NCBI RefSeq assembly: GCF_988243305.1
Contig: NZ_OZ547136.1
DNA length: 64,000 nucleotides
Strand: one strand, 5' to 3'
Position numbers and translations under genes: made by a program
Shown: one piece after another, positions 9,001 to 52,600 of the stretch
Layout: the number at the start of each line of letters is the position of its first letter
How positions within the stretch are numbered: position 1 is the stretch's first letter
Notes under the pieces: model-generated
What the model saw: the letters and a program-made list of their open reading frames with translations, nothing else
The model's database searches: none
Told to the model about the DNA's origin: nothing

Positions 9001-9393
9001 TAAGCCAGGAGACTATTGATCAATAATACTGCGTCATAAGAAATCTCTATTAGACAAAGTAGACGCTCCTTCCACATGCGCCACAAGAAACCTCTATTCC
9101 AGTGACACAATTACGCCTGATTATTTCCCTAGCCCGGAATATGAATAAAAACATCAACAAAGATTAAATTATTCAAACGTTACTGTTGCGTCTGCGGTCG
9201 TAGCAACATTCGACGTGGTGATGAGTGTTAAAAGAGACACTCTGATGTTCAGAGGGGTTATCGCGTTTACGGATCGTGGATGGCAGAAAACTTTCAGGAT
9301 CAGGTATCCATTTTAAACCAGAAATTGAGTGAGTTTGCCCCATCCATGCCCCAAGCGGTGAGATTGGAAGTAATTAACAACAGGTTACAAAAC

Positions 9394-21917: not shown

Positions 21918-22008
21918 AAAAAAATCCCGACCCTGAGGGGGTCGGGATGAAACTTGCTTAAGCAAGAAGCACTTAAAAAATTCGTTACACCAGGAAATCT
22001 GATGTGTT
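21918..22008 (-). ncRNA. dsrA: Small regulatory RNA DsrA (Hfq-dependent regulator of rpoS and hns)
   Basis: Minus-strand sequence AACACATCAGATTTCCTGGTGTAACGAATTTTTTAAGTGCTTCTTGCTTAAGCAAGTTTCATCCCGACCCCCTCAGGGTCGGGATTTTTTT matches DsrA, including its terminator hairpin. Confidence 0.85.
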
Positions 22009-29078: not shown

Positions 29079-29774
29079 TTATCCCGCGGGTGAAAACGCA
29101 TCTATCACCTTGTGATCGACACCTTCATTCTCCCCCGCCAGTTCGGCACTGAGCTTCGCCATAAACTCGACTAAAAAATGCGCGTTGTGCTGCGCCAGCT
29201 GCTTGCCTCTTGCGGTTTGCATGGTTTGCGGTAGCTTCAGCAACTTAGTCTGGAAATGATCCAGCGCGTAGCGTTTATCATCAAGCGGGCGATGCTGTGC
29301 GAACGGATCTTCACCATCAAACAGCGCCACGCCCAATGCCCCTGAAACGGCAAACACGCGCGCCAGGCCAATCGCCCCCAGGGCTTCCAGCCGATCCGCA
29401 TCCTGGACGATTTTAGCTTCCGTTGTTAAGGGGGCGATTTGCGCGCTGAAACTGTGAGCGGCAATGGCATGACAAACGGCCTCGATTTTCTCCGCCGGAA
29501 ATTGCTCGAACTCTTCACGGAGCAGGCGACGCGTCTCTTCTGCCGCCAGGATTGAAGAACGCTGCCTTTGCGGATGATTTTTCGCCAGGCTCACAATATC
29601 GTGAAAATAACAGGCGGTTAAAATCACCAGCATATCGACATCGTCATCTGCCGCCAGCTTCTGTGCCGTAGCCCAGACGCGGCGAAAATGACACACGTCA
29701 TGGGCCGCGTCCTGGTGCTGATGATGGTTTTTCAACCAGTTTTCGAACTGTGCCTGCCAGTGTTGTAAGTCCAT
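29079..29774 (-). CDS. yedJ: HD-domain phosphohydrolase YedJ
   Basis: 231 aa with HD-domain His/Asp motifs. Confidence 0.85.
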
Positions 29775-29829
29775 ACGCGCTCCGTTGCCAAAGAGTCGCC
29801 ACCTTAGCAGTTTTTATTCATAGCGTCTG

Positions 29830-30198
29830 CTACGTGCGGGACGAGGTCGGGTGTACCAGGCAATGCTGCCTAACAATGCCCCGACCAGAGCCATAAATAA
29901 AAATCCGACCAGTGCCCCTAACCACTTTCCCGCGGTAGAGCCTAAATCGCTTTTCAAATCCCGACACCGGGGCATCAGGGATCCGGCTCATCACCCAGAT
30001 GTAACGCGCCATTGCCCAGACGAAATAGCCACACCATGTATAGAAAGCCCACAAAGCCAATTTGCCGCCAGGGCTGCGAGAGAGTCTCTCTTCCATCTTT
30101 GTCGAACCGTATTCCATTTTGAGATAACCCGGAAAATTCAGACATAGTACTATTATGTGATAAAAGTCACATTTTTCCACATTGGATGAGCCAGTCAA
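29830..30198 (-). CDS. yedR: Putative inner-membrane protein YedR (start uncertain; an internal ATG at 30117 is possible)
   Basis: 122-aa ORF with the hydrophobic segment KLALWAFYTWCGYFVWAMARYIWV, in the yedR position between yedJ and the porin. Confidence 0.6.
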   Translation of the reverse strand: MTGSSNVEKCDFYHIIVLCLNFPGYLKMEYGSTKMEERLSRSPGGKLALWAFYTWCGYFVWAMARYIWVMSRIPDAPVSGFEKRFRLYRGKVVRGTGRIFIYGSGRGIVRQHCLVHPTSSRT

Positions 30199-30343: not shown

Positions 30344-30434
30344 CTTTTTTGATTTCTGTGTCATGATAACCCCGTTATTAGCCTTTTATCGTCTTGTTTA
30401 TATTTTTTGGGCCGGCATGATGCCGGCTTTTTTT
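30344..30434 (+). ncRNA. rseX: Candidate small RNA, probably RseX; only the 3' end is defined
   Basis: Strong plus-strand intrinsic terminator (gggccggcatgatgccggc plus 7 T, 30409-30434) with no plus-strand protein gene upstream; RseX is recalled to lie between yedR and yedS in K-12; the 5' end is a guess. Confidence 0.4.
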
Positions 30435-30745: not shown

Positions 30746-31933
30746 ATGAAAAGAAAAGTTCTGGCAATGCTGGTCCCGGCGTTATTAGTTGCTGGCGCAG
30801 CAAATGCGGCTGAAGTCTATAATAAAGATGGTAATAAACTGGATTTGTACGGAAAAGTAGCGGGCCTGCACTACTTCTCTGATGATGCTGGCAGCGATGG
30901 CGACATGTCATATGCCCGTATCGGTTTCAAAGGTGAAACTCAGATCGCTGACCAATTCACTGGTTATGGTCAGTGGGAATTTAACATTGGCGCAAACGGT
31001 CCTGAAAGCGACAAAGGTAATACCGCAACGCGTCTGGCATTTGCAGGTTTAGGCTTTGGTCAGAATGGTACTTTCGACTATGGTCGTAACTACGGTGTCG
31101 TATATGACATCGAAGCATGGACCGATATGCTGCCAGAATTTGGTGGCGATACCTATGCTGGTGCCGACAACTTCATGAACGGTCGTGCTAATGGTGTTGC
31201 AACCTACCGTAACAATGGCTTCTTTGGTCAGGTCGATGGCCTGAACTTTGCTCTGCAATATCAGGGTAATAATGAAGATGATGGATTATTCGGTCAGGAA
31301 GGTTCTGGTAACGGTAATGGCCGTAAGTTAGCTAAAGAGAACGGCGACGGCTTCGGTATGTCCACTTCCTATGACTTTGACTTTGGTTTAAGTCTGGGCG
31401 CTGCTTACTCTAACTCTGACCGTACCGACAATCAGGTTCACAAAGGTACTCATAACACTCGTTATGGAGATCGCTTCGATGCAACTGCTGGCGGTGAAAC
31501 AGCAGAAGCATGGACCGTTGGTGCTAAATACGACGCTAATAACGTTTACTTAGCAGCTATGTATGCTGAAACCCGTAACATGACTGGTTACGGTGATGCT
31601 GATGCGATCGCTAACAAAACCCAAAACTTTGAAGTTGTTGCTCAGTATCAGTTCGACTTCGGTCTGCGCCCGTCCATCGCTTACCTGCAATCTAAAGGTA
31701 AGGATTTAGGCGGTGTAAATAGTGATAACTTCGACAGCCAGGGCAATCATCATTACACCAACAAAGATCTGGTTAAATATGTTGATATTGGTATGACCTA
31801 CTACTTCAACAAAAACATTTCCACCTACGTTGATTACAAAATCAACCTGCTGGACAACGACGACGACTTCTACAAAGAAAACGGCATCGCTACCGATGAT
31901 ATCGTAGCTGTGGGCTTAGTCTACCAGTTCTAA
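30746..31933 (+). CDS. OmpC/OmpF-family general porin, apparently intact (yedS-like)
   Basis: Signal peptide [21 protein letters not shown], then [16 protein letters not shown] and C-terminal ...VAVGLVYQF, hallmarks of enterobacterial 16-strand porins; the track ORF starts 30 nt upstream. Confidence 0.9.
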
Positions 31934-40467: not shown

Positions 40468-40543
40468 TCCTCTGTAGTTCAGTCGGTAGAACGGCGGACT
40501 GTTAATCCGTATGTCACTGGTTCGAGTCCAGTCAGAGGAGCCA
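40468..40543 (+). tRNA. asnT: tRNA-Asn (GUU); integration site of the High Pathogenicity Island
   Basis: TCCTCTGTAGTTCAGTCGGTAGAACGGCGGACTGTTAATCCGTATGTCACTGGTTCGAGTCCAGTCAGAGGAGCCA. Confidence 0.95.
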
Positions 40544-40704
40544 ATTTTCTGTTTTCTTGCATCCTTGCGAATCTTTATCTGATGTTGATTCAACAGGTTA
40601 GTGTGAAAACTCTTCTCGGTGCATTTTGATTTTACCCTACGCATCGGGAAAAATTGGTGGTCAAATCTGGGGTCAGGTTAGTTCGATAATGGAGTGACCC
40701 CCAT

Positions 40705-49673: not shown

Positions 49674-52600
49674 ATGATTTCTGGCGCACCATCTCAGGAT
49701 TCGCTGTTACCGGACAACCGCCACGCGGCTGATTACCAACAATTACGCGAGCGGCTCATACAGGAACTGAATTTAACGCCGCAGCAGTTACATGAAGAGA
49801 GCAACCTGATCCAGGCCGGCCTGGATTCCATAAGATTGATGAGATGGTTACACTGGTTTCGTAAAAATGGCTACCGCCTTACCCTTCGCGAGCTGTATGC
49901 CGCCCCCACGCTGGCGGCATGGAACCAGTTAATGCTCAGCCGGTCGCCGGAGAACGCGGAAGAAGAAACGCCGCCCGACGAATCATCCTGGCCGAACATG
50001 ACCGAAAGTACCCCCTTCCCATTGACGCCAGTACAGCACGCCTACCTGACGGGCCGCATGCCGGGGCAGACGCTTGGCGGCGTGGGTTGCCACCTGTATC
50101 AGGAGTTTGAAGGCCATTGTCTGACGGCGTCGCAGCTGGAGCAGGCCATCACGACCTTGCTGCAACGCCACCCAATGCTGCATATCGCCTTTCGCCCCGA
50201 CGGGCAGCAGGTCTGGCTACCGCAACCTTACTGGAACGGCGTCACCGTCCATGATTTACGCCATAACGACGCTGAAAGCCGCCAGGCCTATCTGGACGCA
50301 CTGCGCCAGCGCCTGAGCCACCGTCTTTTACGCGTGGAAATCGGCGAAACGTTTGATTTTCAGCTGACGCTCTTGCCGGACAATCGCCACCGCCTCCATG
50401 TCAATATTGACCTGCTGATTATGGATGCCTCCAGCTTTACGCTTTTCTTCGATGAGCTTAACGCCCTGCTGGCCGGAGAATCGCTGCCGGCTATCGACAC
50501 CCGCTATGATTTCCGCTCGTATTTGCTGCACCAGCAGAAGATCAATCAACCACTGAGAGACGACGCGCGCGCTTACTGGCTGGCGAAAGCATCGACGCTT
50601 CCCCCCGCGCCCGTCTTGCCGCTGGCCTGCGAACCCGCCACGCTATGTGAAGTCCGTAATACCCGACGCCGCATGATTGTCCCGGCAACACGCTGGCACG
50701 CCTTTAGCAACCGGGCCGGCGAGTATGGCGTGACGCCGACAATGGCACTGGCGACCTGTTTTTCTGCCGTGCTGGCTCGCTGGGGCGGCCTGACGCGTCT
50801 GCTGCTTAACATCACCTTATTCGACCGCCAGCCGCTGCACCCGGCGGTTGGCGCGATGCTTGCCGACTTCACCAATATTCTTCTGCTGGATACCGCCTGC
50901 GATGGCGATACCGTCAGCAACCTGGCGCGTAAAAACCAGCTCACGTTTACGGAGGACTGGGAGCATCGCCACTGGTCCGGCGTCGAATTACTCCGTGAAC
51001 TCAAACGCCAGCAGCGCTACCCCCACGGCGCCCCGGTGGTATTTACCAGCAATCTGGGGCGTTCCCTCTACAGCAGCCGCGCAGAATCGCCGTTGGGCGA
51101 GCCGGAATGGGGCATCTCGCAAACGCCGCAGGTCTGGATAGATCATCTGGCGTTCGAGCATCACGGCGAGGTCTGGCTACAATGGGACAGCAACGACGCG
51201 CTGTTCCCTCCGGCGTTAGTCGAAACATTGTTCGACGCCTACTGCCAGTTGATTAACCAACTCTGCGATGACGAAAGCGCCTGGCAAAAGCCGTTCGCAG
51301 ATATGATGCCCGCCAGCCAGCGCGCGATACGCGAACGGGTCAACGCCACCGGCGCCCCCATTCCCGAAGGCTTGCTGCATGAAGGCATTTTCCGTATCGC
51401 TCTGCAACAGCCGCAGGCGCTGGCGGTAACGGACATGCGTTATCAGTGGAATTATCATGAGCTGACAGACTATGCCCGCCGTTGCGCGGGCAGGTTAATC
51501 GAGTGCGGGGTTCAGCCCGGCGATAATGTGGCTATCACGATGTCGAAAGGCGCAGGACAACTTGTTGCGGTTCTGGCCGTCCTGCTGGCCGGGGCGGTTT
51601 ACGTTCCGGTTTCGCTGGATCAGCCTGCCGCACGGCGCGAGAAAATCTACGCTGACGCCAGCGTCCGGCTGGTGCTCATTTGTCAGCACGACGCCAGCGC
51701 CGGGTCAGACGATATTCCCGTCCTTGCCTGGCAGCAGGCCATTGAGGCGGAGCCGATCGCCAACCCGGTAGTACGCGCCCCCACGCAACCGGCCTACATT
51801 ATCTACACCTCCGGCTCTACCGGTACGCCGAAAGGGGTAGTCATTTCTCACCGGGGAGCGCTTAACACCTGTTGCGATATCAATACCCGCTATCAGGTTG
51901 GCCCGCATGACAGGGTGCTGGCCCTCTCCGCCCTACATTTTGATTTATCGGTTTACGACATTTTTGGCGTACTGCGCGCGGGCGGCGCGCTGGTGATGGT
52001 GATGGAAAATCAACGGCGCGATCCTCACGCATGGTGTGAGCTGATCCAGCGCCATCAGGTCACGCTCTGGAACAGCGTCCCGGCGCTGTTCGATATGCTG
52101 CTGACCTGGTGTGAAGGTTTCGCCGACGCCACGCCGGAAAACCTGCGCGCAGTGATGCTTTCCGGCGACTGGATCGGGCTTGACCTCCCCGCCCGTTATC
52201 GGGCCTTCCGGCCACAAGGACAATTTATCGCGATGGGCGGTGCCACCGAGGCGTCTATCTGGTCTAACGCCTGCGAAATTCACGACGTCCCCGCCCACTG
52301 GCGCTCCATCCCTTACGGTTTTCCGCTAACCAACCAACGCTACCGGGTGGTGGATGAACAGGGCCGGGACTGCCCTGACTGGGTGCCGGGTGAATTATGG
52401 ATTGGCGGCATTGGGGTCGCGGAAGGCTATTTCAACGATCCCCTGCGTAGCGAGCAGCAATTTTTGACGCTCCCGGACGAGCGCTGGTATCGCACCGGCG
52501 ATCTCGGCTGCTACTGGCCAGATGGCACAATCGAGTTCCTCGGTCGTCGCGACAAGCAGGTCAAAGTCGGAGGATATCGCATCGAGCTGGGCGAAATCGA

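Follow-up and report, generated by a model that had tools for sequence, protein, structure and literature searches.

The closest described protein to the one discussed here is DrpB (YedR) of Escherichia coli K-12. [quoted passage not shown] The gene is nonessential; the delta-drpB phenotype is mild, and a synthetic defect is seen with delta-dedD (PMC7648144). When overproduced, DrpB activates Rcs in an RcsF-independent manner. The T89A substitution abolishes this activation, and deletion of loop residues 48-57 abolishes ftsEX suppression (PMC11709261). Normal DrpB is an inner-membrane hairpin of 100 aa in which a cytoplasmic N-terminus precedes TMH1, a periplasmic loop of ~20 aa leads to TMH2, and a basic tail lies in the cytoplasm.

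The drpB locus analysed in this study lies in a stretch of DNA of 64,000 nucleotides, the whole of which is called the window. In this window drpB is a gene remnant and not an intact member of the DrpB family. A 53-codon hydrophobic ORF at the 3' end of the locus represents, with a probability of about 0.96, TMH2 and the tail of DrpB put out of frame by one extra A, and the gene a lineage-specific drpB pseudogene.

The drpB locus and its overlapping reading frames

The 53-codon ORF is located at 29814..29975 (-) in the ORF listing, begins with ATG and encodes 53 aa. It was recovered with exactly the sequence quoted in the original prediction. A TTG-started ORF of 122 aa at 29830..30198 (-), also taken from the ORF listing, overlaps it in a different frame. 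The Kyte-Doolittle hydropathy (19-residue window) of the 53-aa ORF peaks at 2.35 at ALVGFLFMALVGALLGSIA, and the maximum of the other frame over the same stretch is 0.38. The six frames of the window contain 122 ATG-ORFs of 45-70 aa; 14 of these have a hydropathy of at least 1.6 and the 53-aa ORF alone has a hydropathy of at least 2.3.

The window is of E. coli origin. A 601-nt query around the ORF matched 4,910 of 5,426 complete RefSeq E. coli genomes, and the features beneath these matches are "drpB: cell division protein DrpB" and "yedJ: phosphohydrolase." The remaining genomes (~516 of 5,426) gave no match to the locus query; H30 retains yedJ alone. In the window, yedJ encodes an HD-domain phosphohydrolase and is the conserved neighbour downstream of drpB at 29079..29774 (-), as identified by the ORF listing, annotation and synteny. 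The rseX sRNA is the divergent neighbour upstream of drpB at 30345..30434 (+) (RF01401, 97.8 bits, Rfam gathering score), and its 3' end is a terminator-like hairpin at 30409-30429. The DsrA sRNA was found at 21922-22008 (-) (102.5 bits, Rfam gathering score). Upstream of rseX and drpB, an intact gene for an OmpC-like porin occupies 30746-31933 (+) (WP_000824408.1 in JE86-ST05) and is labelled "ompC" by PGAP. In K-12 this porin is called yedS, and the K-12 copy is a frameshifted pseudogene with an internal stop.

The drpB (yedR) pseudogene spans 29814..30117 (-) from the mapped start ATG-22 to the native TAA, based on the annotation of JE86-ST05, the alignment to K-12 and the published start site (PMC7648144). 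ATG-22 lies at 30117-30115 (MEYGSTK...) and the native TAA stop at 29816-29814, and PGAP uses a span of 29814-30096 with the start at ATG-29 (MEERL...). A candidate drpB promoter, a consensus match only (TGGAAA / 16-nt spacer / CATAAT, 30152..30179 (-)), sits between the old GTG-1 start (30180) and ATG-22 and is conserved in K-12, W619 and locus L010. In the drpB promoter or leader region, 8 nt downstream of the candidate -10 box CATAAT (30157-30152), the window has a private SNP at 30144 (coding-strand A to T) relative to JE86-ST05, W619, K-12 and L010. This SNP gives an ATG to a 56-aa ORF at 29975..30145 (-), which is probably meaningless.

The frameshift and the frame of DrpB

In the alignment to K-12, a +1 insertion was detected after codon Glu55 of drpB, at an A4 run (GAAAAG) at 29951..29954 (-). 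K-12 and ~4,900 other genomes have A3 (GAAAG) at this site. In an alignment of the window, JE86-ST05 and K-12, the change from TTTGAAAGCG in K-12 to TTTGAAAAGCG in the window, A3 to A4, is the sole indel in the gene. Four further differences separate the drpB sequences of K-12 and the window; each is synonymous in the DrpB frame, and none lies downstream of the insertion. When one A was deleted in silico, the resulting protein was 100% identical to K-12 DrpB. The K-12 gene is intact (282 bp) and reads ...PVSGFE-SDLGSTAGKWLGALVGFLFMALVGALLGSIAWYTRPRPARSRRYE straight through in the TM frame.

The features of the hairpin can be placed on the two frames. TMH1 (~residues 20-43, 29989..30060 (-)) is in frame with the start codon, as indicated by the ORF listing, the family model NF038392 and the ortholog alignment. 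TMH2 (WLGALVGFLFMALVGALLGSIAW, 29856..29924 (-)) is out of frame with the drpB start and was assigned from hydropathy, the ortholog alignment and the published topology (PMC7648144). Its distal end carries the IAWYTRP motif (29844..29864 (-)), which includes T89 and was placed by the ortholog alignment and from the literature (PMC11709261). Codons 9-53 of the 53-aa ORF are residues 56-100 of K-12 DrpB, which cover TMH2 with the IAWYTRP motif as well as the basic cytoplasmic tail. Codons 1-8 (MPRCRDLK) come from reading DrpB loop codons 47-55 out of frame. The clean TM helix claimed for the ORF is therefore confirmed as DrpB TMH2, and its positively charged tail is the basic tail of DrpB. After the insertion, the frame of the drpB start continues into a hydrophilic nonsense tail (KRFRLYRGKVVRGTGRIFIYGSGRGIVRQHCLVHPTSSRT and a stop at 29832-29830; 29830..29950 (-)), which was defined from the ORF listing, the 95-aa protein BCA74418.1 and the ortholog frames. 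The first codon of this tail, AAG (K), starts at 29952 and overlaps the inserted A-run. Thus, a single uninterrupted two-TM ORF of ~85-103 aa was not found; TMH1 and TMH2 are in different frames.

The original prediction took the hydrophilic frame to be the annotated frame of yedR. This does not hold, as the TM frame is the one that the reference K-12 DrpB uses, and two TMHs are described for the published protein (PMC7648144). The 122-aa frame that was regarded as annotated is the frameshifted ORF of the window, and its length is close to that of the old 121-aa K-12 YedR, which is in the TM frame, by coincidence.

Family membership was evaluated with the NCBIfam model NF038392 (div_DrpB_YedR, an equivalog of 86 positions with a curated cut-off of 50). 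The 53-aa ORF scored 64.1 bits (E 1.1e-17) over model positions 46-85 of 86, a result that rules out the earlier suggestion that the ORF is a product of chance. The frameshifted N-terminal product scored 81.4 bits over positions 1-58 and the repaired protein scored 151.6 bits over positions 1-85. A Pfam scan of both frames gave nothing significant, just a sub-threshold glycine-zipper and other noise; the homologs carry precomputed PF28000 "DrpB" tags. In a protein search, DrpB orthologs were found in E. albertii, E. fergusonii, Citrobacter, Lelliottia, Klebsiella, Pseudocitrobacter, Atlantibacter, Kluyvera and Phytobacter. The 53-aa ORF aligns with the C-terminal halves of the orthologs, and those of E. 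albertii, E. fergusonii, Lelliottia, Klebsiella, Atlantibacter, Pseudocitrobacter and Phytobacter align to the ORF frame. Residues A86, W87, Y88, T89 and P91, which are nearly invariant in 15 orthologs, are present in the frame of the 53-aa ORF. The hydrophilic tail of the frameshifted product gave no alignment to the orthologs. In addition, the porin-drpB-yedJ-dcm/vsr synteny is kept in E. coli and seven other species or genera.

The reading frames were also compared on the DNA of eight sequences (seven orthologs and K-12); for the Citrobacter amalonaticus ortholog (P0026), a search for encoding contigs gave none. In the C-terminal half, the mean pairwise differences per codon position in the DrpB frame were 0.356/0.191/0.621, which is an ordinary coding signature. 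This third-position excess fits the DrpB frame alone, and the other two frames contain stops in most orthologs. The DrpB (TM) frame is open in all eight sequences, and the read-through frame of the window (RFRLYRGKVV...) has stops in seven of the eight and no conservation. No dual-frame constraint, in the form of suppressed synonymous variation, was found in these eight sequences. A check of codon conservation across relatives had been proposed with the original prediction, with conservation confined to the 122-aa frame as the adverse outcome; the opposite was observed.

It was also suggested that the ORF could be an independent gene for an overlapping small membrane protein, a single-pass peptide translated from its own ATG at 29975. 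The ORF is open, ATG-started and strongly hydrophobic, and gene callers sometimes call the second half of a broken drpB separately, for example as the 72-aa product in L010. However, such a gene is highly unlikely for several reasons. First, without the insertion the frame of ATG 29975 ends after 10 codons (MPPCRDLKAI* in K-12-type sequences, with the same frame in P0106), so the 53-codon ORF exists because of the frameshift only and cannot represent a conserved overlapping gene; the full ORF is present in just three of the 5,426 genomes. Secondly, residues 9-53 of the ORF are simply residues 56-100 of DrpB, and the variation by codon position is that of one gene in the DrpB frame. Third, ATG 29975 is internal to a translated ORF, and no GGAG, GAGG or AGGA is found within 25 nt upstream of it, a weak point in that the genuine drpB start also has no Shine-Dalgarno motif (PMC7648144). 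Lastly, a collection of 15 billion proteins contains no exact copy of the 53-aa sequence.

Full-length DrpB could still be produced if programmed +1 frameshifting or transcriptional slippage occurred at the A-run. The lesion does lie within a homopolymer, AAAA, and low-level spontaneous slippage occurs at homopolymer runs of this kind. The run lengths known for efficient transcriptional slippage are ~9 or more, though, and four A's are well below them. Moreover, no recognisable +1 slippery or stop-codon context is present at GGA TTT GAA AAG CGA, the frameshift site is not conserved (~4,900 genomes have the in-frame A3 and all orthologs are single-frame), and PGAP treats the allele as a pseudogene. 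Recoding of this kind is thus scarcely credible, and a plain frameshift in drpB is the preferred reading.

Distribution and origin of the insertion allele

An exact 80-mer across the A4 run was found in three of 5,426 complete E. coli genomes, JE86-ST05, JE86-ST02 and W619; among the matches listed, all other full-length 80-mer matches were one base shorter. When the A4 insertion was grafted on the K-12 haplotype, no exact match was found among 4,902 genomes. Recurrent independent insertion at the A-run is accordingly unsupported in complete genomes, none of which has it on the K-12 haplotype, although the identity bands alone leave some room for carriers on other, more divergent haplotypes. 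W619 and the window differ by three SNPs in 3,080 bp around drpB and share a local haplotype, which indicates that their A4 allele is identical by descent.

JE86-ST02 (1999) and JE86-ST05 (2014) are Shiga-toxin-producing enteroaggregative isolates of serotype O86:H27, ST3570 and phylogroup B1 (PMC7366661). Over 50 kb, the window and JE86-ST05 are collinear and differ by 20 substitutions without a single indel; none of the complete genomes searched is identical to the window. This comparison places the source of the window very close to the O86:H27 ST3570 Stx-EAEC isolates. The window also contains a yersiniabactin island (ybtS, ybtX, ybtQ, ybtP, ybtA, irp2...) at 40468-50000+, which is inserted beside tRNA-Asn (40468-40543), carries a tyrosine integrase (40705-41967) and looks like the High-Pathogenicity Island. 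A short integrase fragment at 9238-9360 (+) between yedK and fliE interrupts the flagellar region and is an incomplete pseudogene in JE86-ST05.

The A4 pseudogene allele is already known, being flagged in the RefSeq annotation. PGAP lists drpB of JE86-ST05 (JL003_RS12480) as a "frameshifted" pseudogene at exactly 29814-30096 (-), and drpB of W619 (QC808_RS09440) is likewise "frameshifted." For the exact 95-aa frameshift product, the sole record is BCA74418.1 of JE86-ST05. Three ENA metagenome contigs encode a 116-aa form that has this shift (P0105), and exact-sequence look-ups of the 88-aa, 116-aa and 122-aa products returned no record.

Homopolymer indels are the commonest type of long-read error. 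The extra A belongs to this class and might be regarded as a sequencing or assembly artefact in an intact gene. However, the run is merely four bases long, and the same A4 is present in three independent complete assemblies, the window and the three ENA metagenome contigs. In addition, its carriers were sequenced on different platforms, JE86-ST02 with PacBio and Illumina polishing and JE86-ST05 with Nanopore and Illumina (PMC7366661), and the isolates are 15 years apart. Because the platforms are independent and the isolates so far apart in time, an artefact is very unlikely, to the point of being negligible.

A true insertion in drpB thus remains the preferred reading. The original prediction had also raised the possibility that yedR carries a historical frameshift and that the TM segment is the true C-terminus. 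The frameshift and the identity of the C-terminus were borne out, but the lesion is not historical, as it is a 1-bp insertion limited to three of the 5,426 genomes. Since there is no further decay downstream and deletion of one A restores the exact K-12 protein, the comparison suggests that the drpB lesion is recent.

Proposed consequence and comparison with other drpB alleles

The change from A3 to A4 falls in the loop-coding region and shifts the frame after Glu55. Ribosomes that initiate at 30117 would make DrpB residues 1-55, which cover TMH1 and the greater part of the loop, and then 40 basic, hydrophilic nonsense residues up to the stop at 29832-29830. The frameshift thus strips TMH2, G83, T89 and the tail from the product, and it changes how the loop ends. 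The DNA downstream still encodes TMH2 with the IAWYTRP motif and the tail, out of frame, as a remnant that would not be expressed. An ATG at 29975, which by chance lies out of frame ahead of the insertion, now reads into the TM frame and in this way creates the 53-codon ORF. The most likely outcome predicted from these reading frames would be loss of DrpB function; as drpB is nonessential, such a loss would be tolerated. Some activity could persist in the truncated TMH1 fragment or in a TMH2 peptide with an initiation of its own.

The carrier lineage, which is close to Stx enteroaggregative O86:H27, is very probably without functional DrpB, and its members would be natural drpB mutants. Carriers could show delta-drpB division defects in sensitised backgrounds, namely delta-dedD at high ionic strength. 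DrpB is a nonessential accessory protein of the divisome and a multicopy activator of Rcs, and the pseudogene matters little beyond correct annotation. The case offers a useful pattern for genome scanning: when a small membrane-protein gene has a hydrophobic ORF in an alternative frame at its 3' end, this is the signature of a frameshift pseudogene and not of an overlapping gene.

Several other broken alleles of drpB were observed. A net 8-bp deletion at L010:1585-1664, homologous to ~29975-30035 of the window, leads to a 42-aa product (P0102, P0104), and P0103 is a related 42-aa DrpB variant. Gene calling treats the second half of the L010 remnant as a "DrpB" gene in its own right, with a product of 72 aa. 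Of the 5,426 complete E. coli genomes, 74 contain the exact 80-mer of the 8-bp deletion, and P0102 has entries in 1,920 index blocks. Further frameshift or truncation alleles of drpB among the protein hits are P0010, P0020, P0021, P0022, P0075, P0079, P0089, P0106 and P0107. Going by these alleles, drpB seems to have been lost recurrently in E. coli, in several independent ways. The A insertion, the common 8-bp deletion, the many frameshift alleles and the absence of the locus from ~10% of complete genomes lead to a reading in which drpB is a recurrent target of inactivation and its loss could be adaptive in certain lineages, for instance by sparing them DrpB-driven Rcs/Psp envelope-stress signalling, as opposed to neutral decay. 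We consider adaptive loss improbable. In a weaker variant, the TMH1-only fragment or the accidental TMH2 peptide may have residual or new activity in O86:H27.

Three kinds of drpB allele can be compared with that of the window. K-12 drpB is like it in locus and synteny (rseX/porin - drpB - yedJ - dcm - vsr), and its DNA differs by four synonymous SNPs and the insertion. In K-12 the two-TM hairpin is one polypeptide, whereas in the window it is split across two frames after codon 55. The common 8-bp-deletion allele resembles the window's in that it truncates DrpB after TMH1 and leaves an out-of-frame remnant of TMH2; unlike the window's, its lesion is at the end of TMH1 and it is much commoner. 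The drpB genes of JE86-ST05, JE86-ST02 and W619 carry a frameshift allele identical to the window's, with identical coordinates; the 20 private SNPs per 50 kb that set the window apart from JE86-ST05 include the one at 30144.
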